Below, in pieces: positions 4,653 to 57,093 of a stretch of DNA of 64,000 nt. The position numbers and the translations under genes are program-made. Location of the stretch: IMG/VR virus record IMGVR_UViG_3300009593_002680. One strand, given 5' to 3'. This DNA comes from a virus. The notes beneath the pieces were generated by a model. It had not been told where the DNA came from, ran no database searches, and was given only the letters and a program-made list of their open reading frames with translations. How positions within the stretch are numbered: position 1 is the first letter of the stretch; the number at the start of each line of letters is the position of its first letter.

Positions 4653-4659
4653 ATAAATA
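4653..4659 (+). promoter_or_regulatory. T4-type late promoter box ATAAATA, 5 nt before ATG
   Basis: gATAAATA-gtagt-ATG(4665); no SD. Confidence 0.7.
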
Positions 4660-4664
4660 GTAGT

Positions 4665-5687
4665 ATGGCTAAACTACTATGGGTTAAAGGCCCACATACA
4701 ACAGACCCAGAAAGAGCAGTACAAATACAATGGAGTATGGGTAATACCTGTAACTTCAGTTGTGACTACTGTCCTACAATTCTACATGATGGTAGTAAAC
4801 CTTGGCTTCCAACAGAACGTTATTTACAAGTTGTTGATAAAATTTCCAATCACTATAAAGAAAAAGGCAGGTATATGCATTGGGAATTGCTTGGTGGCGA
4901 AGTAACTACTATACCAGACTTTGAAGAAATTATAAAACGTATTGCACATTATAATTCTAGTGTAACAATTTATACTAATGGAAGTAGAACAACAAGATGG
5001 TGGAATGAAGCAAAAGACTATTTAACAGGTGTTGTAATAACATATCACCCTTTAACAATGGACGTACAGCATTTATATGACGTTGTAAATACACTTAAAG
5101 ATAACCTTATACTAGATATTAATATTGCTGGCATAGGAGGTCGTGTAAAAGAATTAAGTGAAGTAGCAGATAACTTAAGAAATATATTTACAGATGGAAA
5201 AATGCAAAGTATATATGATGTGAATATAACAATAAAAACAATGTACAAAAAGTATTTAGGTCCAGATGCAAATCATCATCAACAAGAAGCATACTATGAA
5301 TATACTCCTGAAGAAATAACAATCATGCAAAGACCTGGAGTACTACCAAATCCAAATAGACAACCAAGCCAAGATCCAAATGACAGTATGGAACATCCTC
5401 GTTTTTGGAGTACAGAATTTATGTATGACGATGCTCCTCCAAAGTATGTACAAAGTCACCAAATTATAAATGAAGGACTTAATAAATTTAAAGGCATGAA
5501 ATGTGAATTAGGTTTTGACAGTTTAAATATTGACATGAATGGCGAAGTAATTAGTAGTTGGTGTGGTGCAAGAAACTTTGGAAATATTACACAATTAGAA
5601 AATTGGGATATACCAAAAACTGAAACAAGATGTCCTTACGAATTCTGTAACAACCTCAATGACATCAGCATAACAAAGACGTTATAA
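4665..5687 (+). CDS. radical SAM protein with C-terminal Cys-containing (SPASM/twitch-like) region
   Basis: CNFSCDYC (CxxxCxxC), GGE motif, TNG motif, C-terminal cysteines. Confidence 0.9.
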   Translation: MAKLLWVKGPHTTDPERAVQIQWSMGNTCNFSCDYCPTILHDGSKPWLPTERYLQVVDKISNHYKEKGRYMHWELLGGEVTTIPDFEEIIKRIAHYNSSVTIYTNGSRTTRWWNEAKDYLTGVVITYHPLTMDVQHLYDVVNTLKDNLILDINIAGIGGRVKELSEVADNLRNIFTDGKMQSIYDVNITIKTMYKKYLGPDANHHQQEAYYEYTPEEITIMQRPGVLPNPNRQPSQDPNDSMEHPRFWSTEFMYDDAPPKYVQSHQIINEGLNKFKGMKCELGFDSLNIDMNGEVISSWCGARNFGNITQLENWDIPKTETRCPYEFCNNLNDISITKTL

Positions 5688-5722
5688 AAAACAACCTTAA
5701 TATAACTTTTTTTATAAAGTAA

Positions 5723-5730
5723 TATAAATA
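5723..5730 (+). promoter_or_regulatory. late promoter TATAAATA
   Basis: Exact T4 late consensus upstream of the micro-ORF chain. Confidence 0.55.
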
Positions 5731-5850
5731 CCTTCTATAGTAAGCAATAAGTTTTGTTTATGTAATCATTCTCCCTTAAAAATGGTTTATAATGTAAAAC
5801 GTTCTATGATTTTCGCCACCCTGCTCTTTGCGATACAGGTAGGAGACACC

Positions 5851-5922
5851 ATGGCAGGAGTGATGAGAAGTTTACGAGATATAGAAAACACTTACTACAT
5901 ACACAGGAGTAACAATGGATGA
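5851..5922 (+). CDS. 23-aa micro-ORF MAGVMRSLRDIENTYYIHRSNNG
   Basis: AGGAG 5 nt before ATG; not in the ORF track. Confidence 0.4.
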   Translation: MAGVMRSLRDIENTYYIHRSNNG

Positions 5923-6013
5923 GTTTGAAAAGAATCTCAGAGATAAAGCAGAACTAATTACATTAATATCCATTTTTCTTGTAAGTGTTCTTGCACTAAC
6001 ACCAGCGATATGA
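5915..6013 (+). CDS. 32-aa single-TM micro-protein MDEFEKNLRDKAELITLISIFLVSVLALTPAI
   Basis: AGGAG SD; hydrophobic C-terminus; ATGA overlap with the next ORF. Confidence 0.6.
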   Translation: MDEFEKNLRDKAELITLISIFLVSVLALTPAI

Positions 6014-6183: not shown

Positions 6184-6198
6184 CCAATAAATAGTAGC

Positions 6199-6783
6199 AT
6201 GTTACCATACTACTTAGACATACCCGAACTAGAATTACCTTTTACAATAGAAGATAAACCGTATGTGCAACACCCTATGGATTTAATGACGCCGACAGGG
6301 TTAGGCTTAGGTGGAAACAATTTTCAATATAGAGGAGTACCTGAAGATTGGTACATGCTCACAAAATCATACCTCGAAGAAAAACTTACAATTAAAATTG
6401 GAAGTCTAACACTTTTGAATACAATGTGTAATGCTTCAAGTCCATGGCATAGTGAAGGTCCTTCAACATTTGGACGCAGGTGTGCATTAAACTTTATGGT
6501 TGCAGGAGACTTTGAACGTAGTTATGTTCGATGGGCAAGTAAAGGAGACACTGATCCTATAGAAACATTAGACGGTAAAGGTGCATGGTGGGAAGATGAA
6601 AACTTAGAAGTTTTAGCAGAACACAGAATGACTCCAGGCAAGGCAACAATTTATAATACAATGCATTGGCACAGAGTTTTCAATTTTACTGGATGGAACA
6701 GAATGGTTATCAGTGCCGCCATAATGGAAGACATTGAAACTGTCAATAATCTTTATTTACAAGACAAATTATTCAAGACTTAA
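6199..6783 (+). CDS. cupin / 2OG-Fe(II) oxygenase-like protein
   Basis: WHSE...HWHRV...RMVISA spacing typical of double-stranded beta-helix oxygenases; ATAAATA 5 nt upstream. Confidence 0.55.
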   Translation: MLPYYLDIPELELPFTIEDKPYVQHPMDLMTPTGLGLGGNNFQYRGVPEDWYMLTKSYLEEKLTIKIGSLTLLNTMCNASSPWHSEGPSTFGRRCALNFMVAGDFERSYVRWASKGDTDPIETLDGKGAWWEDENLEVLAEHRMTPGKATIYNTMHWHRVFNFTGWNRMVISAAIMEDIETVNNLYLQDKLFKT

Positions 6784-6886
6784 AGTACCACTTAACCTGA
6801 AGTTGTAATAACACCTATATAGAAATATACGATAAATACAAGTGTAGATAATGATGTAAAAACATCACAAGGGGTAACTAAACAAT

Positions 6887-7054
6887 ATGTCTAATAAGAC
6901 GCCATACGAAATTCGATTAGAATTGATACAAGAAGCAAGGTTGATTTTACAAGCGAAGGCTAGTAAACCTGAGTTCATGCCATCTACTGAGGAAGTTATC
7001 TCCGAGGCAGAGAAACTTAATCAGTTTATTTCCAGAAAACCTGATTCCAGATAA
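6887..7054 (+). CDS. 55-aa hypothetical protein (MSNKTPYEIRLELIQEAR...)
   Basis: Clean ORF with AAGGGG SD and late box at 6832-6838; not in the ORF track. Confidence 0.65.
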   Translation: MSNKTPYEIRLELIQEARLILQAKASKPEFMPSTEEVISEAEKLNQFISRKPDSR

Positions 7055-7075
7055 TACCAATTTATTATATTTTTG

Positions 7076-7104
7076 TTGACAGAATAAGTTAAATAAAGTA
7101 CAAT
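7076..7104 (+). promoter_or_regulatory. sigma70-type promoter TTGACA-N17-TACAAT
   Basis: Near-consensus hexamers with 17-nt spacer upstream of the glycosyltransferase genes. Confidence 0.65.
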
Positions 7105-7135
7105 AACACTTTAACTATTCGGAACAGGAATATAC

Positions 7136-8083: not shown

Positions 8084-8086
8084 AAA

Positions 8087-10155: not shown

Positions 10156-10231
<76 letters not shown>

Positions 10232-10232
10232 T

Positions 10233-10307
10233 GCCCTGTTCGTCTAGTGGTGAGGACACCGGGTTTTCATCCCGGCAACAGGAGTTCGATTCTCCTACAG
10301 GGTACCA
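10233..10307 (+). tRNA. tRNA-Glu(UUC)
   Basis: Acceptor GCCCTGT/ACAGGGT, anticodon arm CCGGG-TTTTCAT-CCCGG, GTTCGATTC, encoded CCA. Confidence 0.95.
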
Positions 10308-10604: not shown

Positions 10605-10626
10605 AAAAATACCGATAAATACTAGC

Positions 10627-11130
10627 ATGAAAGAATTTTTTAAAAGTGCTGGATTATTATTAGGTTGTATATTATTAAGTAGATTTATACTCCCTGACAA
10701 CATAACACCTTTAATAGCAATGGCAGTTTTCATGCCATACCTAACATCAAATAAACAATTACAAATGTTTTTACCTGTTAGTATGTTATTTGTAACAGAT
10801 ATTTTCTTAGGGTTTTATAGCACTATGTGGCTAACTTATGGAATAATGGCCCTTATAGGCTTCATCTCCCGGGTTTTAAATAACGGACAGTACTCAACAC
10901 TAATGGGAACTTCTGCATTAAGTGTTGTTTTATGGCACTTAATTATAAACATTCCGGGACCTTTTCCACCTTTTTCACCAGAAGCATTGGTGTTTGATTT
11001 AAGATTATTAGCAAGTACTTTGGTATTTGCAAGTATATTTTATGCAATACAAAGAGCAGTTACACCTGAATTAGCAGAAGTAATTAATATTAACAATAAA
11101 CAAAAACAAAAATATGTCGGACGAATTTAA
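10627..11130 (+). CDS. multi-TM membrane protein, DUF6580 / ECF S-component-like
   Basis: RFILPDNITPLIAMAVF and LPVSMLFVTDIFLGFY pattern, about 5 TM segments; start moved to the ATG 5 nt after ATAAATA (10615-10621). Confidence 0.55.
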   Translation: MKEFFKSAGLLLGCILLSRFILPDNITPLIAMAVFMPYLTSNKQLQMFLPVSMLFVTDIFLGFYSTMWLTYGIMALIGFISRVLNNGQYSTLMGTSALSVVLWHLIINIPGPFPPFSPEALVFDLRLLASTLVFASIFYAIQRAVTPELAEVININNKQKQKYVGRI

Positions 11131-11665
11131 AGTAGATTTAGTAGAACCAAGAAACCCAGCACTTCACACAGTTGCAAGTGTAAACCCATTTGATGATAAA
11201 GATGCAAATTGGGAAGAACGTGAAAAAGAAATGATACAACTCATGCATGATAGGTTTGGCATAGGACTTGCCGCTCCACAATTAGGTATGGGTTATAGAA
11301 TGTTTGTTATGACATTATCTACAGGAGAGAATGTAGGTGTTTATAATCCTGAGATATTAGAATTCAGTAAAGAAGAAGTTGCTATGGAAGAAGGTTGTTT
11401 AACATTTCCTTTATTGTATTTTATAGTAACAAGACCAGAAAAAGTTAAAGTTAAGTTTCAAACAGTTGACCAAGAAGAAGTTGAAGATTGGTTAGAAGGT
11501 ATGGACGCAAGATGTTTTCAACACGAGTTTGACCATTTAAATGGCAAGTTATATTTAGAGTATGCAAGTGATATGAAATTACAACGTGCTATGAAAAAAC
11601 GTGATAAGAAAATTAAAATTTTACAAACAGATTTAGACTTGCGTAAAATTGAAAATGAGTCTTAA
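11114..11665 (+). CDS. def: peptide deformylase
   Basis: GIGLAAPQ, EGCLT and QHEFDH motifs. Confidence 0.95.
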   Translation: MSDEFKVDLVEPRNPALHTVASVNPFDDKDANWEEREKEMIQLMHDRFGIGLAAPQLGMGYRMFVMTLSTGENVGVYNPEILEFSKEEVAMEEGCLTFPLLYFIVTRPEKVKVKFQTVDQEEVEDWLEGMDARCFQHEFDHLNGKLYLEYASDMKLQRAMKKRDKKIKILQTDLDLRKIENES

Positions 11666-12515
11666 CTATCCATTTTGGGTTAATAACTTTGACAGAGTAA
11701 GAGACCACAAACTTAAATTTCCTTTATCTAGTAAAATATTTGAACACCCTGTATCATTTTGGTATGGTGAACGTAATGGCAAATGCATTGGTAAACTAGA
11801 TAAGAGTCTTAAAAGATTATTCAATAGAACGGCACCTCAGTTGCCCATATTAGTCGTGTATAACATGCCTAATAGAGATATGGGTCATTACAGTAAAGGT
11901 GGTGCTAAAACACGTGAAAGTTATTTGTTATTTTTATTAGAGTTTGCTAGAGGCATTGGTAAAAACAAACCTATTGTTATATTTGAACCTGATAGTTTAC
12001 CTCATACAACACTTATGGAAGATAAAGATGCTGAGTGGCGTTTAAATTTAATGAAAGAAGGATTAGAATTACTAACAGATAGATGTGATGCTTTAGTGTA
12101 TATAGACATTGGGCATAGTAATTGGTTAAGTCCTAAAGATGCAAACATGTTATTAGACAAAGTTAGTAACGATAAAGTAAGAGGGTTTGCTGTAAATGTA
12201 AGTAATTATAGAACAACACAAGAAAGCATGGAGTGGAGTAAAAAAGTATGTGAGCATAGACCTAATGATTATTTTGTTATAGATACAAGTCGTAATGGAA
12301 ATGGTCCTCACGGAAATGAATGGTGTAATCCACCAGGGAGAAGTTTAGGAATACCGCCTACATGTGATACAGGTGATGAACAATGTGATGCTTTTTTATG
12401 GATTAAGATACCAGGAGAAAGCGATGGCAAAGCAAACAAAGGACCTAAAGCAGGAAAGTTCTGGGGTGAAATGGCAGAAGAATTAGTTAATAACACTTTT
12501 GGAAACAATAAATAG
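11655..12515 (+). CDS. glycoside hydrolase family 6 (cellulase-type beta-1,4-glucanase)
   Basis: VVYNMPNRD, EPDSL, YIDIGHSNW, NVSNY, IDTSRNG, WCNPPGR, WIKIPGESDG. Confidence 0.9.
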   Translation: MSLNYPFWVNNFDRVRDHKLKFPLSSKIFEHPVSFWYGERNGKCIGKLDKSLKRLFNRTAPQLPILVVYNMPNRDMGHYSKGGAKTRESYLLFLLEFARGIGKNKPIVIFEPDSLPHTTLMEDKDAEWRLNLMKEGLELLTDRCDALVYIDIGHSNWLSPKDANMLLDKVSNDKVRGFAVNVSNYRTTQESMEWSKKVCEHRPNDYFVIDTSRNGNGPHGNEWCNPPGRSLGIPPTCDTGDEQCDAFLWIKIPGESDGKANKGPKAGKFWGEMAEELVNNTFGNNK

Positions 12516-12519
12516 TAGC

Positions 12520-13200
12520 ATGGATATAGAATACATAAGAGGACCATTCGAACATGCTATAATAGATAATATTATATCTGATGAAGATTGTAATCAATTG
12601 TGGAATTTAGCAAACAACATTCCAGAAGATAGCATAGACTTTGCAAGGGGCGGTGAGCAACAAGACAATGCTTACATGTGGAATAATAATGCAGGACATA
12701 GTGCAACACACGAAGTTATAGATGGACGTTTACATTATGCTGTAACATTAGCAAGTAGAATGTTTGATGACTATAATGATGAACTTTTTACATGGTCTTG
12801 TGCCCTTACAGAAACAAATAGAAATCATGGCAACTTTTTATATCCACATAATGACGACCCAGAAGTAATTAAATTAAGAGATCCAACAGGAACTTATGTA
12901 CCAGCACCAATAAAAGCAGTATTGTATATTCCACACTATAGAACACAATATCGACACTACGGAACTAAAATTTATAATGATAATGACAGAGCAAGTTTTG
13001 TTAGAGAAATAAAATTCGAAACTGCAAGATGTTTTATGTTTAAAACAGGTCCACATAGTTGGCATGGTACAGATTTTGTTAAAGGTATGCCAGAAAGAAG
13101 ATTCTTTTATACTTGTGAATACTTACCAAGAGAATTAGTAAATGACGTAGAAACAGAGTATGGACCAGATGCAACTCCAACAGGTACACCAGATGGATAG
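12520..13200 (+). CDS. 2OG-Fe(II) oxygenase-like protein
   Basis: PHND...WHG...RR motif; start moved to the ATG 5 nt after ATAAATA (12508-12514). Confidence 0.65.
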   Translation: MDIEYIRGPFEHAIIDNIISDEDCNQLWNLANNIPEDSIDFARGGEQQDNAYMWNNNAGHSATHEVIDGRLHYAVTLASRMFDDYNDELFTWSCALTETNRNHGNFLYPHNDDPEVIKLRDPTGTYVPAPIKAVLYIPHYRTQYRHYGTKIYNDNDRASFVREIKFETARCFMFKTGPHSWHGTDFVKGMPERRFFYTCEYLPRELVNDVETEYGPDATPTGTPDG

Positions 13201-18688: not shown

Positions 18689-20146
18689 TTATCCTTGATG
18701 CTCGTCATTAGCAAAGAGGTTTGCTAAAAACCCTGCTTTTTTTGGAGCCTTTTCTCTTTTCTTATTATAACTAGGTGTTGATTTTCTCATTTGACTTTTA
18801 CGTTTTTGCATTAAGTCTTTACCTAGTTTAGTTTTAATATCTGCTTCTTCTTTATCGTCTATACTTTTAAATATTTTTTTATCTTTGTTAAACTTGAATT
18901 CTTTTCCACGTACATCTTTAACAACGTCAGCAACTCCAACGTCTTTGTAACTTCTTTCTTCTAATCTAACATCATATACTACTTTGCTTAATCTTGCAAT
19001 AGTATCTGCTAATTCTGGATTTACACTTTCTAATTCTGAGTATAGTTCTTGTGGACTATATTGTAATGCTTCTTCTTGGTCTTTCTTTAATGCTTTACCT
19101 AATATAGTACATACTGTATTTTCTTCTGGAGTATTTTCTTGCTTTGGCAATGCCATTGCTTCACCAAATGCCATTTTAGATGCTTTACCTAGTATTTCAC
19201 TTCTTTGTCCTCTACCCATGTGTGGGAAGTCTGCCTGCATTTGTTGATATGCTAGTCTAGGATCATCCATTTGTTTCATATAACTAGCAACTTGTTTAAT
19301 TACTTCTTCGTCACCTGGATATTCGTCTTTGGATTTTTGTCTATCTGCTTTACGTTCATCATGCTTAACTATGTCGAGCCAATCTGCTCCTGTTAGTTCA
19401 CCTTCGTCACAGCCAAAAATACCAACGCCATCACATTCAGTGCCTTCTTCGTACTCTTCTGTTTCATCATTGTACATTTCTTCTTCACCATCCATAAAGC
19501 CATTTCCACCACAACCTGGACATATACCTTGCATAATACTTTCTTGGTCATCTTTGTCAAATTTATCTAAGTCATCTTGCATGTTATCGTATGCTTCTTG
19601 TCTTTCTTCAGCATCGTAGTAATCATCAGGCTCACCTATCATATTATCTGCATAGTCGCCTCTTGCTGGATTGTAGTCTGGAGCACCTATGGATGCTTCA
19701 TCAGTTTCAGTTTTACCTAAAACTTTCTTCTTAAATTTATCACTAACATCTGCTGGGTGGTCTGGATTATCTTTGTTTAATGAATAGTACCCAGGACCTT
19801 TAAGATTTTTTATAAAGTCTGATAATTTTTTACCACTTTTATCAAACTTTTTGATTTGATCTCTTATGCTTATATCGTCTGTTGCTTCGGCATGCATAGC
19901 CGCCATATGGTCTTTGTATTTTTTAGTACCTTTTTTGTGTGGGGATTTGCCTTCTATAACTTCAAAATCACTAGTACCTGTACCAGTGTAACGTGATGCT
20001 GTTCCACCATGTTGTGCTCTGGCTTTTTCTATTGCACTATTCTTATGCATAGCAGTAACTTTATAAGTTTTACCGCTTATTTTGTGCTTAACAGTATAGT
20101 GCCTGAAAGATTCTTCTAGTGTTTTATAAAAGTCTGATAGTTTCAT
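18689..20146 (-). CDS. modular acidic/basic hypothetical protein, possibly virion-associated
   Basis: Alternating basic and acidic modules, one CPGCGGNG...C..C Zn-finger-like segment; ATAAATA 6 nt before ATG. Confidence 0.55.
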   Translation of the reverse strand: MKLSDFYKTLEESFRHYTVKHKISGKTYKVTAMHKNSAIEKARAQHGGTASRYTGTGTSDFEVIEGKSPHKKGTKKYKDHMAAMHAEATDDISIRDQIKKFDKSGKKLSDFIKNLKGPGYYSLNKDNPDHPADVSDKFKKKVLGKTETDEASIGAPDYNPARGDYADNMIGEPDDYYDAEERQEAYDNMQDDLDKFDKDDQESIMQGICPGCGGNGFMDGEEEMYNDETEEYEEGTECDGVGIFGCDEGELTGADWLDIVKHDERKADRQKSKDEYPGDEEVIKQVASYMKQMDDPRLAYQQMQADFPHMGRGQRSEILGKASKMAFGEAMALPKQENTPEENTVCTILGKALKKDQEEALQYSPQELYSELESVNPELADTIARLSKVVYDVRLEERSYKDVGVADVVKDVRGKEFKFNKDKKIFKSIDDKEEADIKTKLGKDLMQKRKSQMRKSTPSYNKKREKAPKKAGFLANLFANDEHQG

Positions 20147-20173
20147 GTAAACTATTTATCACTTTTAGGAGAT

Positions 20174-20419: not shown

Positions 20420-20421
20420 TG

Positions 20422-20580
20422 TTATCTCCCTTGACCTCTGTACTTCTTATGAGAACGTTTTTTATGCTTGTTCATAGTAGATGTTGATATCTTACAACGT
20501 CTACCGCGACCGCCTTGTCCTATGGAACTACATTTCCTTGTAGGTGTTATAGTACTTACTTTTCTTGCCGCTCTAGCCAT
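20422..20580 (-). CDS. 52-aa highly basic protein (MARAARKVST...KKRSHKKYRGQGR)
   Basis: GAGGGG SD, late box at 20627-20633; not in the ORF track. Confidence 0.7.
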   Translation of the reverse strand: MARAARKVSTITPTRKCSSIGQGGRGRRCKISTSTMNKHKKRSHKKYRGQGR

Positions 20581-20655
20581 TACCCCTCATGGTTGAACAA
20601 TTCACTATGAACTGTTTTGATGTATGTATTTATTTAAAAACTATTTTAATGGAAA

Positions 20656-25314: not shown

Positions 25315-25350
25315 TATGTGTGTATTTATCATGAATCCAGTATTTTGTTC

Positions 25351-25379
25351 AAAAAAAAGCACACCCTAAGGTGTGCTTT
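25351..25379 (-). terminator. intrinsic terminator
   Basis: AAGCACACC-loop-GGTGTGCTT followed by a T-run on the minus strand. Confidence 0.8.
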
Positions 25380-25988: not shown

Positions 25989-26037
25989 TTGGTTACTCCA
26001 ATATTATAATCGATTATAGTATTTCTACTATTAGTAT

Positions 26038-27596: not shown

Positions 27597-27607
27597 ACTG
27601 CTATTTA

Positions 27608-27636
27608 TTGACAAATTGATTAAAGTACATTATAAT
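27608..27636 (+). promoter_or_regulatory. sigma70 promoter TTGACA-N17-TATAAT abutting a divergent late box
   Basis: Perfect consensus; its first base is shared with the minus-strand ATAAATA. Confidence 0.8.
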
Positions 27637-29349: not shown

Positions 29350-29397
29350 AACATTACTTTAAGATAAATACTCTTGTAGGAAAACACAGGAGTAGTT

Positions 29398-29856: not shown

Positions 29857-29886
29857 TCAAATTATTATTTCCAATTAAATATCCAT

Positions 29887-31865: not shown

Positions 31866-31922
31866 AATCATATTTATGTCCAAACTGTTTTAATTATACG
31901 CAAAATACCGATAAATAGTTGC

Positions 31923-40272: not shown

Positions 40273-40301
40273 TTGACATTTACCAGATAATCTGGTATAA
40301 T
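40273..40301 (+). promoter_or_regulatory. sigma70 promoter with internal palindrome
   Basis: TTGACA-N17-TATAAT; TACCAGA-TAA-TCTGGTA at 40281-40297; ATG 7 nt after the -10. Confidence 0.8.
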
Positions 40302-40308
40302 TGTTACT

Positions 40309-40749
40309 ATGACTATGCATCTTGCACAGGGTCTTACGACTCTTAGGAATAAAAAGTATAAGCCTAAAATGACAAAGGCTAATGTAGCCAAATGGCAAGA
40401 AGGCTTAAGACTTAAAAATAAAGAGCATAAAAGATTGGGTTTACCTAAGTGGTCTTTTGAGCAGTATGTTGATTACTGTCACGGAATATCACCTAAGGTA
40501 GACCCAAGAAGTAGAGAAGCATTTAAGCCTAGAAAAGATACGGTTGCTGATGAAAGAATGCGTGAGCAAAGAGAATATGCAGAAAAGTATCCTAGTATGC
40601 CTTTAACAGGCGGAGGTGGTACTGCTGAAGATATTGCATGGCAACGAGAGAAAGCAGAAATATGCAAGAACTATACTATTGCTCCTGCTTACAATAAAGG
40701 TGCATATCAAGTAATTGGTAAAAATAATATTAAGGATATTGGTAAATGA
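40309..40749 (+). CDS. conserved phage-type hypothetical protein
   Basis: C-terminal APAYNKGAYQ motif; basic. Confidence 0.65.
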   Translation: MTMHLAQGLTTLRNKKYKPKMTKANVAKWQEGLRLKNKEHKRLGLPKWSFEQYVDYCHGISPKVDPRSREAFKPRKDTVADERMREQREYAEKYPSMPLTGGGGTAEDIAWQREKAEICKNYTIAPAYNKGAYQVIGKNNIKDIGK

Positions 40750-44482: not shown

Positions 44483-44552
44483 TGTTTTCTCCTAATTAGG
44501 TTAGACTTTTACGTCTTGTTACATGTATTTATGCAATATAGGGATTTTAGTC

Positions 44553-44970: not shown

Positions 44971-45094
44971 TTTATGACTCCTAATTTGTTGTGGAAACTA
45001 CATTGTTGTATATTTCCTAGTTGCTATTATTTATATAAAATGCCCAAAAAAACAAGGTTTTTAAAAAAATAATACAAAAAGATGTAAAAAAAGG

Positions 45095-45142
45095 TTGATT
45101 TTTGCCAATAAAGTACTATATAATACATATAGATTATAAATA
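45095..45142 (+). promoter_or_regulatory. tandem sigma70-like (TTGATT-N18-TATAAT) and late (TATAAATA, 45135-45142) promoters
   Basis: Motifs read directly. Confidence 0.55.
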
Positions 45143-45147
45143 TCTTT

Positions 45148-45490
45148 GCAATTACAAAAGTAAGGGCAACAGGATCGTAAGTGAATGACGTCTACTACAA
45201 TTGAAATTGCATGTATTATCAACGGAAAGGTAACACAAGGTAATTGGATCGTAAGTGAAAAAAACCGACTGGTGACCAAACAAAGAAGATAATACATTAT
45301 TAAGACATAGTCTTAAAAAGAGCTCGGACAAAGCGAAATCTTCGGACTAGTGGAGTTTTAAAAAGAGCTCGGACAATGTCTACTTGGGTTGCCCAACAAA
45401 GGACTTTAATTGGCAAGAGTTAAAGAAACCAAGAAGTGCAACAAGTAGGAAGAAGGGACAGGACACACACTAACGAATGCCCCTTCATCC
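45148..45490 (+). ncRNA. candidate large structured GGA-rich RNA
   Basis: No plus-strand ORF in the track; 14-bp and 19-bp direct repeats; several 6-11 bp helices; 11 GGA motifs in 45172-45463. Confidence 0.55.
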
Positions 45491-45533
45491 CGCGAACTTT
45501 TTATTCGCCATATGGGTTTAAAAAGTTGGAATA

Positions 45534-45565
45534 GATAAACTTGCTAAATATAGGAGATTATTATG
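45534..45565 (+). promoter_or_regulatory. ROSE-like RNA thermometer hairpin over the hsp20 SD
   Basis: CTTGCTA-AATA-TAGGAG: UUGCU pairs with AGGA leaving the G bulged; outer helix GATAA/TTATT. Confidence 0.7.
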
Positions 45566-46050: not shown

Positions 46051-46254
46051 ATGGCAAAAAAAGACAAAAGAAAGACGTTAGTTTATTTGATTCCTGAAGG
46101 TGAAACAAGGGACAGTCATACCTATCATTATACAGCATTGAAAACAAAAAGGTTGACAATTGAAAATATTAAGTTAAAATTAAGAAAGTATAATCCGGTA
46201 AAGCGAAAACACGAAATGTTCGTTGAAGCAAAATTACCACCACATAGTAAATAG
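46051..46254 (+). CDS. rpmG: ribosomal protein bL33 homolog (Zn-free type)
   Basis: HYTALKTKR...KLKLRKYNPVKRKHEMFVE; no CxxC motifs. Confidence 0.8.
   Translation: MAKKDKRKTLVYLIPEGETRDSHTYHYTALKTKRLTIENIKLKLRKYNPVKRKHEMFVEAKLPPHSK
46153..46180 (+). promoter_or_regulatory. internal promoter (GG)TTGACA-N16-TAAAAT inside the bL33 gene
   Basis: Same extended -35 as the other early promoters; points at clpS-sufB. Confidence 0.5.
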
Positions 46255-46261: not shown

Positions 46262-46561
46262 ATGACACAAGAAGCAGTTAAAACTAGAGCAACAACAGAA
46301 TTGCGTTATCCTCCAAGGTTTGATGTAATTGTTTTTAATGACGATTACACTCCAGTTGATTTTGTAATTAGACTGTTAGTTGAGATATTCAATAAAAACG
46401 TTGAAACTGCTAAAGAAGTTACAATGCAAATACACGAACATGGACAAGCAGTAGCAGGTTCATATAATTGGGAAATTGCAGAGCAAAAAACCACAGAAGC
46501 AATAGCAACTGCTAGAGCAAGTGGTCACCCTTTACAACTTAAAACCAAACAGGTAGAATGA
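46262..46561 (+). CDS. clpS: N-end rule adaptor ClpS
   Basis: [22 protein letters not shown]...GHPL. Confidence 0.92.
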
Positions 46562-48018
46562 GCATAGATAATCTTGAGAAAAATAAGAAATACCAAGAAG
46601 GGTTCGTAACTGAATTAGAGAGCGAATCTTTTCCAGCGGGTCTTGATGAACAAGTTGTAAGAAATTTAAGTGCAATTAAAAATGAGCCCGAATGGTTATT
46701 GGAGTTTAGATTAAAAGCATTTAAAAGATGGGAGTCTATGTCGGAACCAGAATGGGGAGAACTAGATTACGAACCCGTTGACTACCAAGCATTAAGTTAT
46801 CACTCTGCACCAAAGAAATTTGACAAAGATGAAATACCACCAGAGATATTTGAAACATTTGAAAAGTTAGGTGTACCATTACATGAACGTGATGCATTAT
46901 TAGGCTTAGATACAGAAAAGCCAAAACCAGATAACCTTATTCCAACAGTAGCCGTTGACGCAGTATTTGATAGTGTTAGTGTTGCTACAACATTTAAAGC
47001 AGAACTAGAAAAACATGGTATTGTATTTTGCAGTATCAGTGAAGCAGTACAGGATCATCCTGAACTAGTTAAAAAATATTTAGGTAGTGTGATACCTTAC
47101 ACAGACAATTACTTTGCTACACTGAACTCTGCTGTATTCTCAGACGGTACCTTTTGCTATATACCTAAGGGTGTAACATGCCCAATGGAACTCAATACAT
47201 ATTTTAGAATAAATGCTAGAAACACAGGACAGTTTGAACGTACACTTATTATAGCAGACGAAGATAGTTATGTAAGTTACTTAGAAGGTTGTACTGCTCC
47301 AGCATATGATGAGAATACATTACATGCCGCCTGTGTAGAATTAATTACATTAGATAATGCAGAAATAAAATATTCCACAGTACAAAATTGGTACCCAGGA
47401 GATGAAGATGGAGTAGGTGGAGTATATAACTTTGTAACAAAACGTGCAAAGTGTGAAGGCAAGAACAGTAAAGTTAGTTGGACTCAAGTAGAAACAGGAA
47501 GTGCAATTACATCGAAATACCCTAGTTGTATTTTAAAAGGAGAAGGTAGTGTAGGAGAATTTTTTAGTGTTGCAGTTACAAAAGGCAAACAACAAGCAGA
47601 CACAGGCACTAAAATGATACACTTAGGAAAGGATACCAAAAGCACCATTATATCCAAAGGCATAAGTTTTGGAGATAGTACAAATACATATAGAGGTGCA
47701 GTAAAAATAAATCCGGGTGCCAATGATGCATCTAATTATACAAAGTGTGATAGTTTAATGCTACAAGACAGTAGGGCATTAACTATACCATATGTTACAA
47801 GTCAAAATGATACTGCAACTGTAGAGCATGAAGCAAGTGCAGGAAAAATAAGTGAAGAACAAATGTATTACTTGGCAACAAGAGGTTTTAGTGAGGATGA
47901 TGCGATGAATTTAGTAGTAAATGGATTCTGTAAAGATGTGTTTCAAAAACTACCATTAGAATTTGCCGCTGAAGCCAATAAACTATTGAGTATAACACTA
48001 GAAGGTGCCGTAGGATAA
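46558..48018 (+). CDS. sufB: Fe-S cluster assembly scaffold SufB
   Basis: [61 protein letters not shown]. Confidence 0.97.
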
Positions 48019-48021
48019 TCG

Positions 48022-48050
48022 TTGACATTAATTACCAAAGGTAGTATAAT
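48022..48050 (+). promoter_or_regulatory. sigma70 promoter TTGACA-N17-TATAAT, 6 nt before the sufC ATG
   Basis: Perfect consensus; no SD. Confidence 0.85.
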
Positions 48051-48056
48051 ACGCAG

Positions 48057-48752
48057 ATGTTAGAATTAAAAGACTATTCAGTTAATCCTATACTTGAAGG
48101 TATAAACATTGAGTTTGACGTAGGTCGAACTTATATTGTTATGGGTGCTAATGGAGTAGGTAAAAGTACATTGTTGCATAGTATTATGGGAAGACCTGAT
48201 TTAGATGTAAAAGGTACACTTAAACTTAATGGTCAAGATATCAGTGAACTTGAAGTAGATGAAAGAGCAAACCTAGGAATGTTTGTAGGGTTCCAAGCAC
48301 CAACAAGTGTTCCTGGATTAAGTAACTTTCAATTTATGAAACAAGCATTAAACACTGAAGGTAAAGATATTAGAGAAACATTAGAAAAATTCAAAGCATT
48401 AACACATACTTTAGGATTGCCTGAAGGTTGGGACAAGCGAAACTTAAACACAGATGCTAGTGGTGGTGAGAAAAAGAAAAATGAGTTAATACAAATGAGC
48501 ATGTTGCCTACAAAGTTAGCCATGTTAGATGAACCAGACAGTGGTTTAGATGTTGATGGTATTAAAGCATTATCAAAACAATTGAATGAATGGAGAACAG
48601 CCGACAATACACTTATTGTTGTAACACACTACGAAAAACTTATAGAAAGTCTAGATCCTGATGCAATTCTTGTGTTAAAGAAAGACCACATAGTTGGTGG
48701 TGATAAAACGTTAGCACAGAAAATATTTGCAGAAGGGTTTGATAGTGTTTAA
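48057..48752 (+). CDS. sufC: Fe-S assembly ABC ATPase SufC
   Basis: GANGVGKS, SGGEKKKNE, LDEPDSGLDVD, VTHY. Confidence 0.95.
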   Translation: MLELKDYSVNPILEGINIEFDVGRTYIVMGANGVGKSTLLHSIMGRPDLDVKGTLKLNGQDISELEVDERANLGMFVGFQAPTSVPGLSNFQFMKQALNTEGKDIRETLEKFKALTHTLGLPEGWDKRNLNTDASGGEKKKNELIQMSMLPTKLAMLDEPDSGLDVDGIKALSKQLNEWRTADNTLIVVTHYEKLIESLDPDAILVLKKDHIVGGDKTLAQKIFAEGFDSV

Positions 48753-50022
48753 AAATTTATACAGTTCAAATATATTAACAAAACAAAATGGATTTGAAAG
48801 TTTTTATAAACTTGAAGACATCCTCGATTTTGTAACATCTCCGATATACTTAGAAGAATTAGAAAATTCTGAATACAAGAAAAAGGTTCCAGGGTTACAT
48901 AAACATTATGTAGACAATTTATATTACCTACGTGAAATAGGTTTACCTTCTAATAAAAACGAACAATTTAATTTTAGTAATATTAATAAATTAAAAAACA
49001 TAGATATTTTAAATACTGAATCGAGAACTATTAGTGGCGTAGATGATTTAGTAAAGTATGAATATCTAGCAACTGAGAAAAATACAGTAGTTATAACAGA
49101 TGGTCATATATTAAGTAGTACAGACGTTAGTACAAAGAAACCATTTAATGTACAAATACTAGATAACATAAAATATAACAAACAAAAGCAAGATGAGTAT
49201 GTTAAAATTATTGAACATACAAATGATTTTAGAAACTTAACATACGCATTATCAACTTTTCCTAATATAATAATTTTTCCTTCGGGAAGTAAAGATAACT
49301 TTTATAAGAATCCATTTACTATTGAATATGTTAATGGTACTGATGATCCTGTATTACAAGCAAACACTAGTATAGTTGATATACAATATAATACAAAAGT
49401 TAAATTAAGAGAACGTGTAAAAAGTCTTGCTGGACAAATGAACTATGTAACATACATTGTAAGAGAAGATGCAGAGTTAGAAATTGTTAGAAACTCAAAA
49501 GACTTAGGTGGTTGGACATTGTTTGATAGTAGGTTTGTTTGTCACCCAGGTAGTAAAGTTACAGTAAAGTTTAAGAACGAAGGTAGTCAATATTCACAAG
49601 AAAATTTTTACTTTAAATGTAGTAGTCATGTTGAAGTAGATTTAGTTGGTAGAAACAATATTAAAAAAGGAAATGATTATCATCAGTTTGTACAAGTAAA
49701 AAGTCAAAACGATAGCAACAAAAGTGTAATAGATATAAAAAATGTTGGTAACGAAAATGCCAATACAAGTTTTATAGGAAAGTATGATGTTAGTCCATTT
49801 AGTATAGGGTTCGATGGACAGATGAGTAATGAGAATTTAATGCTAACAAAAAATGTTAAAATGCATACTCGTCCAATATTGGATATTCATACCAAAGAAA
49901 TTGAATGCTCACATGGTTGCACGATAAGTAATATTAATAAGGACCATTTGTACTATCTGCAAAGTAGAGGATTTAGCAGACAAAAAGCAAATGACATTTT
50001 AGTGGACAGTTTCCTATGTTAA
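48727..50022 (+). CDS. sufD: SufD-like protein
   Basis: C-terminal PILDIHTKEIECSHGCTI...YYLQSRG; operon position; start uncertain. Confidence 0.85.
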   Translation: MQKGLIVFKNLYSSNILTKQNGFESFYKLEDILDFVTSPIYLEELENSEYKKKVPGLHKHYVDNLYYLREIGLPSNKNEQFNFSNINKLKNIDILNTESRTISGVDDLVKYEYLATEKNTVVITDGHILSSTDVSTKKPFNVQILDNIKYNKQKQDEYVKIIEHTNDFRNLTYALSTFPNIIIFPSGSKDNFYKNPFTIEYVNGTDDPVLQANTSIVDIQYNTKVKLRERVKSLAGQMNYVTYIVREDAELEIVRNSKDLGGWTLFDSRFVCHPGSKVTVKFKNEGSQYSQENFYFKCSSHVEVDLVGRNNIKKGNDYHQFVQVKSQNDSNKSVIDIKNVGNENANTSFIGKYDVSPFSIGFDGQMSNENLMLTKNVKMHTRPILDIHTKEIECSHGCTISNINKDHLYYLQSRGFSRQKANDILVDSFLC

Positions 50023-51248
50023 AAGCATACAAAAAAGCAAAATCAATAAAACAAATACGAGCATGTTTTCCTGCTCTAGCATATAGTGATATAACTTACT
50101 TAGATAATGCGGCTAGTACTCAAACAGTAGATAGTAGTATTAAAGCAGTAAGTGATTACCATTATAACTACAGAGCAAATGTGCATAGGGGTGATTTTAA
50201 AACAAGTCATATTGCAACAGACTTATATGATGAAGCAAGAGAAGAAGTTGCAAAGTTATTAAATTGTGAAGCATACGAAATTGCATTTACAAGTGGTACT
50301 ACAGAAAGTTTAAATATGATTGCAGAGCATTATGCTAATGATGATAGACAAGTTATTATAACACACTTAGAACATCACAGTAATAGTTTACCTTGGATGA
50401 AGCAAGGACGTAATGCAGAAAATGGCGGACTACTTGTTTGCAAAGCAACTGATGTTGGTGATGTTAGTATGCAGGATTGGGAAGAAATATGTTCTGAAAA
50501 TCCTGGAAGTATTGTATCATTTTTAACACAAAGTAATTTAAGTGGACACATGTTAAAATGGAACCAAATGGTCCATATAGCAAAAGAACATGATTGTGAA
50601 GTTATACTTGATGCTTGTCAAAGTATTGCACACCAACCAATAGATACTAAAATGAATAACATAGATTGGATTGCTTTTAGTGGACATAAAATGTTTGCTA
50701 GTACAGGAGTTGGTGTATTATTTCACAGAGGTGGATTTGCAGATATAGTATCACGTTTAGGTGGTGGTACAGTTAGTTATGTAGATTATGATAAAGGATA
50801 TACATTAAACAATGATGTTAGTCAAGTAGAATCAGGAACACCTAATATTGCAGGAGTACATAGTATTGGTGCCGCGGCTAAATGGATTCAAGAAATAGGA
50901 TATAAAGAGATACAAGAATGTGAAGCAGAATTTTTCTATATGCTTAAAGATAAAGGTCTTTTTGATATAGAACAGTTAAAACTAATTGGCGATCCGTACC
51001 CTAGAAGTGTTTTTAGTTTTGTTGTAGACCCAGAGTTAGATTACAATGCAAGTGATTTGGCTGGATTTTTAGACTTAACTGATGTATGTGTTAGAACAGG
51101 ACACATGTGCGCCTATCCGGCAAGTATGAGATATAATCATTCAGGAAAAGGTATTTTTAGAGTTAGTGTTGCACCATACAATGATGAACACGATTGCGTT
51201 AAGTTAGTAGAGGGACTATGGAAAGCGATAGAGAAACTGGAGAAGTAA
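50016..51248 (+). CDS. sufS: cysteine desulfurase SufS (group II)
   Basis: YLDNAASTQ, EHHSN, FSGHKM (PLP Lys), ESGTPN, RTGHMCA. Confidence 0.93.
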   Translation: MLKAYKKAKSIKQIRACFPALAYSDITYLDNAASTQTVDSSIKAVSDYHYNYRANVHRGDFKTSHIATDLYDEAREEVAKLLNCEAYEIAFTSGTTESLNMIAEHYANDDRQVIITHLEHHSNSLPWMKQGRNAENGGLLVCKATDVGDVSMQDWEEICSENPGSIVSFLTQSNLSGHMLKWNQMVHIAKEHDCEVILDACQSIAHQPIDTKMNNIDWIAFSGHKMFASTGVGVLFHRGGFADIVSRLGGGTVSYVDYDKGYTLNNDVSQVESGTPNIAGVHSIGAAAKWIQEIGYKEIQECEAEFFYMLKDKGLFDIEQLKLIGDPYPRSVFSFVVDPELDYNASDLAGFLDLTDVCVRTGHMCAYPASMRYNHSGKGIFRVSVAPYNDEHDCVKLVEGLWKAIEKLEK

Positions 51249-51574
51249 GTCCACCTGAGAACTTACAAGACCAATTAGTAGAACAAATTATAGCAAACTT
51301 GCGTAGAGTTTACGATCCAGAGATTAATCTTAATGTTTACGACTTAGGTCTTATATATCAAGTAGCAGTAAATAAAGAATATGATGCTAATGTTATAATG
51401 ACATTGACATCGCCTAATTGCCCGGCGGCTGAAATTATTCCAATGGAAGTAGAGTTTGCCACTAGAGCAGTAGAATGTATTAATAAAGTAAAAGTAACAT
51501 TAACTTTTGATCCACCATGGAATCCAGACACCATGATTAGTGATGAAGGCAAATATCAAATAGGTATATTATGA
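51218..51574 (+). CDS. sufT: DUF59 / SufT Fe-S assembly protein
   Basis: VYDPEINLNVYDLGLIY, MTLTSPNCP, FDPPW. Confidence 0.9.
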   Translation: MESDRETGEVSPPENLQDQLVEQIIANLRRVYDPEINLNVYDLGLIYQVAVNKEYDANVIMTLTSPNCPAAEIIPMEVEFATRAVECINKVKVTLTFDPPWNPDTMISDEGKYQIGIL

Positions 51575-53426: not shown

Positions 53427-53458
53427 CGTTATCATTTTTAATAATATGGAGACAAAAA

Positions 53459-54061: not shown

Positions 54062-54944
54062 ATCTGGGCAAGGATCTAACCACTTAGATTTTAAATTATA
54101 CGACACACCTATAGTAGAAAAAGTTATAGAAGTCTTGAATAGAACAAAGCAGGACATTCACGGTTCTGTTGAGTATCGTATAGATACAAAGTTTGCTCAA
54201 TCAGAACAAACTTCTTTAGAATTAGCAATGGAAATGAATCGTATCATTGACGAAGTTAATACTTTAGGAAGTGTTGAAATACCTGATAGTTGTTACTTAG
54301 AAACATCAATAGAACCTCATTTACAAACAGATAAACTTAACCATTTACACCTAATATTCCAACTGTATAGTGAAGAACACGGATTTGGCGACCCTACACA
54401 GGTATTGCTAGAACGTGTAAACATATTAGTACACATGTTAGAAAGTGCTCCAGTTGAAATGGATCAAGTGTTTATAGTAGCAAAACAGGACCGTTTTAGA
54501 CCTAATTCAATTGAAGGAATAGATTTAAACTTAACATCACAAGACTATATGTCTAAGTTTCCTTGGGGCATGTGGGGATTTTTAGAACTAGATTACAATA
54601 CAGTTGGTAAAGATTTAAGTGCATGTTTTGGTACTAATGATGTTGTATTAGCAAATAAACCAGAAGAATTAAGACAGCAAGAAGTTTATAGTCCTGCATT
54701 TGCTGTTAATTTTTGTGAAGGACCACATAACAAAAATACAGAAGAATACGATAAAGACTTAATTAACAAGTTCCATATATGGTGTAAAGAGAATGAATTA
54801 CCTTATAATTACACAAATCCGGAATATAGATTGGGTAGAATCAGATTAGGAGAGATTATAGGGGATTGGACTATGCAAAGCATTCAAGAGTTTGTAACAC
54901 ACTATCCTAATATAATTGAAATAGTTGCTTTAAATGATAAATAA
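54033..54944 (+). CDS. hypothetical protein
   Basis: About 300 aa ORF overlapping the peroxiredoxin end. Confidence 0.55.
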   Translation: MKLRLIFQSESGQGSNHLDFKLYDTPIVEKVIEVLNRTKQDIHGSVEYRIDTKFAQSEQTSLELAMEMNRIIDEVNTLGSVEIPDSCYLETSIEPHLQTDKLNHLHLIFQLYSEEHGFGDPTQVLLERVNILVHMLESAPVEMDQVFIVAKQDRFRPNSIEGIDLNLTSQDYMSKFPWGMWGFLELDYNTVGKDLSACFGTNDVVLANKPEELRQQEVYSPAFAVNFCEGPHNKNTEEYDKDLINKFHIWCKENELPYNYTNPEYRLGRIRLGEIIGDWTMQSIQEFVTHYPNIIEIVALNDK

Positions 54945-54977
54945 GTACTGTAAACGATATCCACTGGAGAAAAATAA

Positions 54978-55826
54978 ATGGCTAACATGACTTTACCCAC
55001 AGAAGCAGAAGTAAGAGCAATAGACACAGGTGCTTTTGTATGGGATGATTTACTAGACGGATTGCTATCACAAGCACAAGGTCAAGTAATTAAAGCAGTA
55101 TGCGACAGAATGGACGCAGGTGAAACTGTATGCATAGTAGAACCATTCCAAGCAACAGGTAAAACTGCAAAATTTATAAACGATAATGTTACAGGTGCAA
55201 ATAATTTAAAAATTGTTACTAGTGACTCATACGTTGACACTTACTTAACAACAAGTGATTATTTTAAAAATACAGGAAATGTTGCAAACGTATATAAGCA
55301 TGATACATCTGCGGCAACGGAAATCATTTACAATGGAGACGGCGATGCTGTTTCTATCAAGTTCTGGGACGCCAATACAGACCCAGCAAATCCAACACTT
55401 AAAAGAGAACATGCATTTGCAGATACACCAGTAGCATTAGGTACAAACGATTTATCAAACTTTACTATTGTTTGGCCCAGAGAAACACAGATTAAAAACA
55501 ATGCAGACGAGAACTTAGGTTCAGGCGATAATGTAGGTGATTTTAATCCTGATGTTTGGGTTATTGTTCCTTGGATTGTTAATCTAGGTAATCCAGAATT
55601 TGACCTAGACATTAATAAAAGAACATTTGCACAAATTTTTAACAAAATGGAATCAGGTGAAGTTTTTATAGTAATGAACTTCCATATACCAAATGTTAAT
55701 CAGGCATTTTGGGCGGCAATGAATGCCATGACTGCTACAGGTAAAAACTGGAGTACTGAATATGTACTTAACAGTGAATCTGATAACTCAGGTTATTGGC
55801 AAGCGGCACTAGTGAAAAAAGGTTAA
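54978..55826 (+). CDS. hypothetical late protein, possibly structural
   Basis: Late box 54937-54943, GGAG SD. Confidence 0.5.
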   Translation: MANMTLPTEAEVRAIDTGAFVWDDLLDGLLSQAQGQVIKAVCDRMDAGETVCIVEPFQATGKTAKFINDNVTGANNLKIVTSDSYVDTYLTTSDYFKNTGNVANVYKHDTSAATEIIYNGDGDAVSIKFWDANTDPANPTLKREHAFADTPVALGTNDLSNFTIVWPRETQIKNNADENLGSGDNVGDFNPDVWVIVPWIVNLGNPEFDLDINKRTFAQIFNKMESGEVFIVMNFHIPNVNQAFWAAMNAMTATGKNWSTEYVLNSESDNSGYWQAALVKKG

Positions 55827-55875
55827 TATTACCATTTCTACATAAAAGTAGTTAAATACCCACATAAATATTGTT

Positions 55876-57093
55876 ATGAAACTCGCTATCACCGGAGTGG
55901 GTATAGTCTCGCCTTTAGGCAATACACTTTCCGAGAATGTAGAAAACTTAAAGGCAATGCAGGTTCCTATTCAGGATTATAAACCTCAAGGTCATTTTAG
56001 TGATTGGATTTTAGAAGTAGAAAAAGCATTTCATTGCAATTATGAAGATGTTGACTTAGATGGCTTAATAGAAGCAAAGAATAAACGTTGGTTAGACCCT
56101 ACTGTTATTACAAGTATGATAGCAGTTGATGAAGCAGTACAGATGAGTGGTTTAAACTTTCCAAAGAATACACCAGTATTTGTAGGAACTATTAGAGGTG
56201 GTGCACCAAACCTAGCAAAGTATGGACAAATACTACATCAAAACAGACGTAAAGTACATCCACAGATATTATTAAGTAGTTCACATGAGTACGTTAGCAA
56301 TCATGTAAGCAGTCATTACAAATGGACTGGTGCAAGTATGGGTACTAGTGGAACATGCATTAGTGGAGTACAAGCATTAGACCTTGCTAGAAAGTATATG
56401 ATGACAGAAGATTATGATTGTGCTATTGTAGGTGCAACTGATTTTATGACTAGTTCAATGAGTACAATATACTTTCAATTGTTAGGTGCAATTAGTAAAG
56501 CAGGTAGAAGTGTACCTTGGGACGAAAGTAGAGATGGTTTTGTTATGGGAGAAGGAACAGTTTATCTAGTAGTTGAACCTTTAGAAAAAGCAAGAGAACG
56601 AGGGGCAAACAATATACGTTGGGTAGTAGATGGATTGGGTATTGCTAACGATGGTGCCCATGCTACCCAACCAGATTTAGAAGGCACTGGTGCCAGGATA
56701 GCAATAGATAAAGTATTTGAACAAGCAGGAACTACTGCTAGTGATTACAATGTATTAAATGCACATGCTACTAGTACACCATTTGGTGACCCTGTGGAAT
56801 ATAACGTGTTGAAAGATTATTTCTCAGAGGGAAGTCACTTATACGGCAATAAAGGTCAAGTGGGCCATTTAATGGGTGCTAGTGGTTTAGCAGAAGTTGT
56901 ATTAGGTGCAGAAGCAATGAAGCAAGGATTTATACCAGCAAATGCTGGACTAGAAAAACCATTCACAGATGATGGTTATTTTGACTTATTAACACAACCA
57001 AAAGAACAAAAATACACAAGGATGTTTAAAACATCGTTTGGATTTGGCGGCAGAAGTGCGGCAGTGAGTGTAGTAGATGAAAGAGAAGTTTAA
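55876..57093 (+). CDS. fabF: beta-ketoacyl-ACP synthase (FabF/FabB family)
   Basis: ITGVGIVSPLG, catalytic Cys in TCISG, NAHATST, GHLMGASG, SFGFGG; ATAAATA 5 nt upstream. Confidence 0.88.
   Translation: MKLAITGVGIVSPLGNTLSENVENLKAMQVPIQDYKPQGHFSDWILEVEKAFHCNYEDVDLDGLIEAKNKRWLDPTVITSMIAVDEAVQMSGLNFPKNTPVFVGTIRGGAPNLAKYGQILHQNRRKVHPQILLSSSHEYVSNHVSSHYKWTGASMGTSGTCISGVQALDLARKYMMTEDYDCAIVGATDFMTSSMSTIYFQLLGAISKAGRSVPWDESRDGFVMGEGTVYLVVEPLEKARERGANNIRWVVDGLGIANDGAHATQPDLEGTGARIAIDKVFEQAGTTASDYNVLNAHATSTPFGDPVEYNVLKDYFSEGSHLYGNKGQVGHLMGASGLAEVVLGAEAMKQGFIPANAGLEKPFTDDGYFDLLTQPKEQKYTRMFKTSFGFGGRSAAVSVVDEREV

Follow-up and report, generated by a model that had tools for sequence, protein, structure and literature searches.

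The stretch of DNA examined here, hereafter the window, comprises 64,000 nucleotides (nt) of the IMG/VR virus record IMGVR_UViG_3300009593_002680, and its source is an uncultured marine T4-like giant phage. Within it, the heptamer ATAAATA lies exactly 5 nt upstream of the ATG of eight genes. The explanation we favour, at a probability of roughly 0.7, is that late promoters of the gp55 type, together with some early promoters, have been fused to start codons and so give rise to leaderless messages. Both T4-type late promoters and leaderless mRNAs are familiar, while their systematic fusion appears, as far as we could find, to be undescribed; the literature searched yielded no paper on leaderless late messages from gp55-type promoters or on the systematic fusion of such promoters to ATGs.

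The box and its distance from the start codon

The eight ATAAATA-N5-ATG arrangements (N5 being any five bases) were proposed in a first-pass annotation made from the sequence letters, and the coordinates of all eight were confirmed. Dinucleotide-preserving shuffles, from which the expected counts for this arrangement were taken, predict 0.94 such sites, and none of 100 shuffles reached eight. A histogram of box-to-start distances over spacings of 0–25 nt shows a lone spike at 5, both for ATAAATA (8 observed versus 0.96 expected) and for the shorter TAAATA (11 versus 2.8), with the other spacings at chance. On the plus strand, the fused boxes precede a radical SAM gene (box through ATG 4653–4667, spacer gtagt; gene 4665–5687), a gene without assigned function (6187–6201, spacer gtagc; gene 6199–6783), a DUF6580 membrane gene (10615–10629, spacer ctagc; gene 10627–11130), a further gene without assigned function (12508–12522; gene 12520–13200), where the upstream gene's stop codon (12513–12515) falls inside the box, a conserved gene of 467 amino acids (31911–31925; gene 31923–33326), and a beta-ketoacyl synthase gene (55864–55878; gene 55876–57093). 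On the minus strand, they precede a GDSL-like hydrolase gene that is the first of a minus-strand block (27594–27608; gene 26787–27596) and a gene without assigned function (31863–31877; gene 31266–31865) that forms a divergent pair with 31923.

Two near variants reported earlier are also present, with spacing 6 before ATG 20146 (20144–20159, minus strand; a 485-amino-acid gene at 18689–20146) and spacing 8 before ATG 25314 of the lysozyme gene (25312–25329, minus strand; gene 24838–25314), for which the predicted leader is 3 nt. A weaker variant, TTAAATA-N5-ATG, precedes a methyltransferase-like gene (29876–29889, plus strand; gene 29887–30462), and a TAAATA-N8 arrangement before 46262 is left out of the core set, as the spacing differs at the orthologue in the closest relative.

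The placement of the box is equally telling. Overall, ATAAATA is under-represented in the window (24 copies versus 40 expected), and yet 18 of the 24 copies lie wholly within the non-coding 7.5% of the window, as defined by our own gene calls; three more occupy the last bases of a gene, just 5′ of the next one, and three are found deep inside genes. Depleted overall but concentrated in non-coding DNA, the box is therefore a genuine signal and not a matter of composition. Among the 21 promoter-placed copies, ten are 5–8 nt from an ATG, six are 26–57 nt 5′ of genes with GGAG/AGGAG leaders, and five stand ahead of long non-coding stretches. The second of these groups includes the four boxes that had been described upstream of genes with ordinary Shine-Dalgarno (SD) leaders, and these boxes are real, lying 34–57 nt from their ATGs with leaders that carry GGAG or AGGAG: 26035–26041 on the minus strand (46-nt leader, GGAG, ATG 25988), 44526–44532 on the minus strand (43 nt, AGGAG, ATG 44482), 45028–45034 on the minus strand (an instance of TATAAATA; 57 nt, AGGAG, ATG 44970), and 54937–54943 on the plus strand (34 nt, GGAG, ATG 54978). 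Another, at 29364–29370 on the plus strand, is separated by a 27-nt leader with AGGAG from the SNase-like gene 29398. The use of one box in two layouts, fused and SD-led, argues for a promoter and not a ribosome-binding element.

The fused starts had been described as lacking an SD, and an SD was indeed absent from all 12 genes that have a box 5–8 nt upstream but present at 21 of 75 other genes (p about 0.03), a contrast that is partly built in because the box takes the place where an SD would sit. That the ATGs are the true starts is indicated by the orthologues, whose alignments start with residue 1 at the shared ATG in the case of genes 31923, 31865, 27596, 55876, 4665, 6199, and 10627. At 4665, 6199, and 55876 there is no earlier start codon within the open reading frame (ORF), the ketoacyl synthase domain of the 55876 protein starts at residue 3, and the DUF6580 Pfam match at residue 10 of the ATG-defined 10627 protein. 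For gene 12520 no homologue was found among the viral contigs, and its start is hence without orthologue support. A longest-ORF rule would mis-set five of the eight fused starts to upstream TTG codons.

In T4, the late-promoter box TATAAATA occupies positions −13 to −6 (PMC1524935). The suggestion that the window carries a T4-type box stands for the core, TAAATA being invariant, and fails for the exact octamer: ATAAATA in the window is preceded by G, A or C, giving a box that reads (A/C/G)ATAAATA, and TATAAATA itself is depleted in the window (3 versus 12 expected). A logo was built from 104 distinct N5 sites before ORFs of at least 80 codons, sites that are phylogenetically non-independent. 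It shows A at 63% and C at 22% at −12, and T at −13 is rare (13%), unlike in T4. Such (A/C/G)TAAATA variation is within that published for T4-like phages, where A/T is found at −13 in RB49, KVP40, and S-PM2 and CTAAATA in Aeh1 (PMC1524935). Information content stays at or below 0.25 bits at every position from −32 to −14 of the 104 sites, so there is no −35-like conservation 5′ of the fused boxes. The codon at the N5 position before ORFs of at least 80 codons is almost always ATG (104 ATG, 5 TTG, 0 GTG). As for the spacer, the previously noted pattern (G/C)(T/C)(A/T)G(C/T) fits six of the eight window sites, and the one spacer position under strong constraint across the 104 sites is −1, with its pyrimidine.

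Relatives, early promoters and the predicted transcription start

The window has a G+C content of 33–35%, and its genes are mostly accessory, with radical SAM enzyme, ketoacyl synthase, and lysozyme genes among them, as well as two tRNAs. The closest contig, G001 (110 kb; CheckV completeness 31%), is syntenic with the window, matching 74 of its 91 called genes, while a 340-kb relative, G004 (CheckV completeness 91%), provides a more complete view of the clade, whose genome size is estimated at about 340 kb. The nearest cultured phage is Pelagibacter phage Mosig, at 44% identity in the one gene tested. At the nucleotide level, an exact 42-mer had no match among the viral contigs, and megablast of 12 kb against cultured phages was likewise negative. 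The genome-wide histogram of box-to-start distances was computed on these relatives (G001, G004, and 1.3 Mb of relatives). Counts of ATAAATA-N5-ATG exceed the control in both G001 (10 versus 2) and G004 (19 versus 3). In the 1.3 Mb of relatives, where distinct sites were counted by how far TAAATA lies from the next ATG that begins an ORF of at least 80 codons, 95 sites fall at spacing 5 versus 1–17 at neighbouring spacings, and a second, broad hump at 20–40 nt has an SD in 54% of cases. A reversed-sequence control for this last histogram had no discriminating value, since long ORFs are scarce in reversed DNA, and the contrast within the histogram and the shuffles were relied on instead.

Conservation of the 5-nt spacing, which the first-pass annotation had put forward as a check, was clearly observed. 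All five fused genes with an orthologue in G001 keep the exact N5 there, although the spacers and flanks differ and protein identity is 57–89%; for example, the orthologue of the radical SAM gene (60% identity) has its box at N5 with a different spacer, that of gene 6199 (78% identity) also has its box at N5, and that of the DUF6580 gene (57% identity) has the box at N5 with the spacer ttagc in place of ctagc. A wider survey of orthologues covered 158 loci, counted as distinct upstream contexts. At 28–89% protein identity, the box is kept 5 nt, sometimes 6–9 nt, before the same ATG while the letters of the spacer change. For gene 31923 there are 16 distinct contexts at N5 and 16 at N6–9, for gene 31865 there are nine at N5 and three at N7, and for the ketoacyl synthase gene, whose close orthologues have N5 or N6, there are five at N5 and one at N6. 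For gene 27596, 11 distinct orthologues (28–57% identity) share the ATG and have CTAAATA or ATAAATA 5 nt ahead of it.

Genes whose box is missing or distant usually have an SD. This is the case in 28 of 37 box-less ketoacyl synthase homologues and in a distant clade of gene 31923 orthologues (L038–L051), which have CTAAATA, a leader of about 40 nt, and a GAGG SD. The lysozyme gene shows both states, with seven relatives keeping N8 and seven others having a distant box and an AGGAG leader. Fused boxes are also gained or lost among close relatives, as with an ATAAATA-N5-ATG in G001 (33046–33060) whose window orthologue, gene 10329, has no box.

Two further lines of evidence point to transcription starting at the ATG itself. 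The first comes from divergent genes. A gap of 57 nt separates the ATGs of 31865 (minus strand) and 31923 (plus strand), both of which have a box of their own at 5 nt, and in the relative L047 the same gap is 31 nt, holding only spacer, box, 6 nt, box, and spacer. The two boxes must therefore be the sole promoters, with no room for leaders, unless promoters lie in the neighbour's coding sequence. In a separate arrangement, the late box of gene 27596 (minus strand) abuts the −35 element TTGACA of a divergent early promoter (27608–27636, plus strand; region 27602–27636), which accounts for the conserved tgtcaa found 5′ of the box in orthologues of that gene.

The second line is the base at −1. 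It is a pyrimidine before all fused ATGs of the window (8/8), G004 (19/19), and G001 (10/10), and at the 104 distinct sites it is T in 72%, C in 25%, A in 2%, and G in 0% (97% pyrimidine), compared with 44% pyrimidine at SD-led ATGs in the same DNA and 4/10 at chance matches in T4. Bacterial RNA polymerase favours initiation at a purine preceded by a pyrimidine, and a −1 pyrimidine is to be expected if the A of the ATG has to serve as +1. To our knowledge this is a feature of transcription starts, and we know of no translational reason for a pyrimidine there.

Fusion is not confined to late promoters, contrary to the original description of a purely late class. Eleven sigma70 promoters of the form TTGAC-N17-TATAAT were found in the window versus 0.37 expected, all on the plus strand (9992–59260), and three of the eleven have their −10 box 6–7 nt before an ATG. 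These are TTGACA-N17-TATAAT with the −10 box 7 nt before ATG 40309 (40273–40311, plus strand), a consensus promoter whose −10 box lies 6 nt ahead of the sufC ATG (48022–48059, plus strand; gene 48057–48752), and TTGACT-N17-TATAAT with the −10 box 6 nt before ATG 59267 (59232–59269, plus strand). G001 keeps the spacing at all three, as TAAAAT-N7-ATG at the first and as TATAAT-N6-ATG with a different spacer at the other two. Since some host-type early promoters are fused in the same manner, the layout is better described as a general promoter-to-ATG design than as a late-only one.

The late-promoter reading and its alternatives

According to the mechanism we propose, (A/C/G)TAAATA would be a late promoter of the T4 gp55 type, that is, a lone −10-like TATA box without a −35 element. 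Five bases intervene between box and ATG, so that in T4 geometry +1 coincides with the A of the start codon; transcripts from about half of the window's promoter-placed boxes would thus have that A as their first base. The fused late mRNAs would begin with a 5′-AUG and carry no SD, and the terminal AUG could be bound by the 70S ribosome, or by the 30S subunit with initiator tRNA, through the leaderless route. The other late boxes, 26–57 nt upstream, would use ordinary SD leaders, and the same fusion with some host-type early promoters would make promoter-to-ATG joining a general design of the phage group. As for the factors such a system calls for, G004 has a late sigma factor (phrog_12791, E 2.5e-93; phrog_234, E 8.7e-24), and the annotation of Mosig labels a gp55-like late sigma factor, a gp33-like late-promoter accessory protein, and a gp45 sliding clamp. 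From the conservation, the absence of SDs, the −1 pyrimidine, and the divergent gap, which together favour the gp55-type promoter claimed at the outset, and from the T4 geometry for the start itself, we infer recognition of the box by gp55 in this genome, a +1 on the A, and leaderless translation.

Several points weigh against this interpretation. The position of +1 is extrapolated from T4 geometry for the window phage and its relatives alike, and the evidence for gp55, gp33, and gp45 comes from relatives and not from the window genome. At the leader-type late boxes there is no clean pyrimidine/purine signature at the predicted −1/+1, and the spacing rule is therefore without independent support from that class, although a lower demand for precision at such boxes would be consistent with the absence of the signature. 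The orthologue spacings of 6–9 nt would mean leaders of 1–4 nt and thus RNA that is not strictly leaderless. Gene 12520 abuts the upstream stop codon, so its translation by re-initiation is also possible. Finally, the partly built-in SD contrast and the shared ancestry of the 104 sites, both mentioned above, reduce the weight of those two comparisons.

An alternative that shares the late promoter holds that most of the protein is made from longer transcripts started upstream, by re-initiation, coupling, or very short leaders, with the spacing a result of compaction. The fused genes 12520, 4665, 10627, and 55876 are indeed only 4–49 nt past the previous same-strand stop, the 6–9-nt spacings of some orthologues are in keeping with it, and many other window genes without a strong SD overlap their neighbours. 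We nevertheless consider it unlikely, given that the divergent pair and the block-heading gene 27596 have no upstream gene on the same strand, and that the lysozyme box comes after a terminator-like hairpin, G+C-rich with a T-run (25335–25362), which lies directly 5′ of the box and is conserved in relatives. Compaction, moreover, leaves both the one-base sharpness of the peak at 5 and the near-invariant −1 pyrimidine unexplained.

It could also be argued that ATAAATA, at −12 to −6, serves mainly as a signal for translating longer mRNAs, such as an A/U-rich enhancer or an S1-binding or standby site that replaces the SD, and not as the promoter of these messages. A fixed distance between motif and ATG would suit such a role, as would the A/U-rich character of the box, the A at −3 in many spacers, and the absence of an SD. 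This must be judged improbable, since the identical box occurs 26–57 nt upstream of normal-SD genes, where it would be unable to act as a ribosome site, since consensus sigma70 −10 boxes are fused to ATGs likewise, and since the 31-nt divergent gap of L047 leaves no other promoter; the −1 pyrimidine, too, belongs to transcription starts, and the box matches known late-promoter variants of T4-like phages (PMC1524935). The remaining notion, that the layout is a functionless by-product of AT-rich, stop-rich gene junctions (the window is 33% GC, TAA and TAG occur within ATAAATAG, the box holds stop codons in two frames, and the one at 12508 contains the stop codon of the upstream gene), is effectively refuted by four tests: dinucleotide-preserving shuffles yield about one site, enrichment is seen at spacing 5 only, the box is invariant amid diverged flanks across orthologues of 28–89% identity, and neither AT-rich T4 nor the cyanophages Syn9 and P-SSM2 show an excess over the reversed control.

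Distribution, significance and neighbouring features

Late promoters fused to ATGs appear to mark a particular group of phages. When cultured phages were compared with a reversed-pattern control, TAAATA-N5-ATG was in excess in HTVC008M (14 versus 4) and Mosig (11 versus 3), while no excess was seen in T4 (10 versus 5), Syn9 (3 versus 3), or P-SSM2 (6 versus 6). On these counts, the layout is a mark of the pelagimyophages and the marine giant T4-like group and not of all T4-like phages. Mosig (EXVC030M) and HTVC008M are members of the Kyanoviridae that infect Pelagibacter ubique HTCC1062, with genomes of 141–147 kb versus the 340 kb or so estimated for the window clade. Of the 11 TAAATA-N5-ATG sites in Mosig, 7 coincide with annotated starts, including those of the tail tube and DNA end protector genes. 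Their presence contradicts the earlier proposal that leaderless starts serve mostly enzymes and SD-led starts structural genes. The four SD-led late genes of the window, for their part, had no Pfam or PHROG match, so that a structural role for them is neither shown nor excluded.

The late promoters of T4, served by gp55 with gp33 and the gp45 clamp (PMC1524935, PMC2988020), resemble the boxes described here in having a single TATA-like box with a TAAATA core and no −35 element; in T4, however, the boxes are followed by SD leaders, while about half of the promoter-placed boxes here abut the ATG. In the paper on the OM43 phage Melnitz, late promoters were predicted by a search for TATAAAT, and leaderless messages are not discussed. 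A phage can certainly run a leaderless late programme, as demonstrated by Thermus phage phiYS40, in which the later gene classes are mostly leaderless and their promoters lie directly upstream of the start codon (reviewed in PMC3594737). That phage and its host are nonetheless unrelated to those considered here, its promoters use the host sigma factor and not one of the gp55 type, and its 5′ ends were mapped, while ours are predicted from sequence. Among cells, leaderless genes with a −10 box adjacent to the ORF occur in actinobacteria and archaea. They are found in Deinococcus-Thermus as well, where a constant short interval separates the −10 from the ATG, and leaderless mRNAs are numerous in the Thermus host (PMC12340547). 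This is exactly the design of the three fused sigma70 promoters of the window; unlike in the cellular cases, the arrangement is here borne by a virus and mostly involves a phage-specific late promoter.

One tentative suggestion is that the fusion acts as a translational timing gate, in which ORFs without an SD would stay silent on early read-through transcripts and become translatable once a late start makes their AUG the 5′ end. If true, timing would be enforced at both transcription and translation across a marine T4-like clade that includes cultured SAR11 phages. For a bolder version, in which phage bS21-type ribosomal proteins shift ribosomes towards or away from the leaderless class, we found no evidence. 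The same applies to the earlier idea that expression is tuned by the phage's own bS21, bL33, and deformylase, as nothing was found that links the layout to them. Two of these genes are present, bS21 (35478–35900) and deformylase (11114–11665), the latter merely downstream of the fused gene 10627, while the bL33 match (46051–46254) is weak, at 22.5 bits versus a cut-off of 25. The bS21 homologue is a 140-amino-acid ORF with a TTG start and a GAGGT SD, in which the S21 domain covers only residues 40–90, leaving N- and C-terminal extensions relative to the cellular bS21 of about 70 amino acids.

Should RNA mapping confirm the favoured reading of gp55-type promoters fused to ATGs, a considerable fraction of the messages of a large and abundant group of ocean phages, including the cultured pelagimyophages, would lack ribosome-binding sites. 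This would bear on gene calling and the choice of start codons in marine viromes, on the timing of protein synthesis by phages, and on leaderless translation in streamlined marine hosts. The prediction is sharp and cheap, namely that a cultivable phage-host pair will show 5′-pppAUG ends at specified coordinates.

Some other features of the window are worth recording. Five late boxes are followed by 116–420 nt in which no gene was called (5724–6009, 6832–7135, 20420–20633, 45136–45562, and 62866–62990), and these stretches may represent long leaders or harbour small ORFs or non-coding RNAs. An Rfam scan of the window returned only the two tRNAs, with no riboswitch or other known RNA in these long gaps. 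The tRNAs, tRNA-Thr and tRNA-Glu (10156–10307), are driven by the first of the sigma70 promoters (9992). A complete SUF operon for iron-sulfur assembly (46558–51574) encodes SufB, SufC, SufD, the cysteine desulfurase SufS, and an FeS_assembly_P protein, and its closest phage SufB, at 60% identity, is that of Microcystis phage MaAM05. Lastly, the FabF-like ketoacyl synthase gene is followed, within 55876–58506, by a dCMP/cytidine deaminase gene (57077–57580), and the synthase is conserved at 75–89% identity in several giant marine phage contigs.

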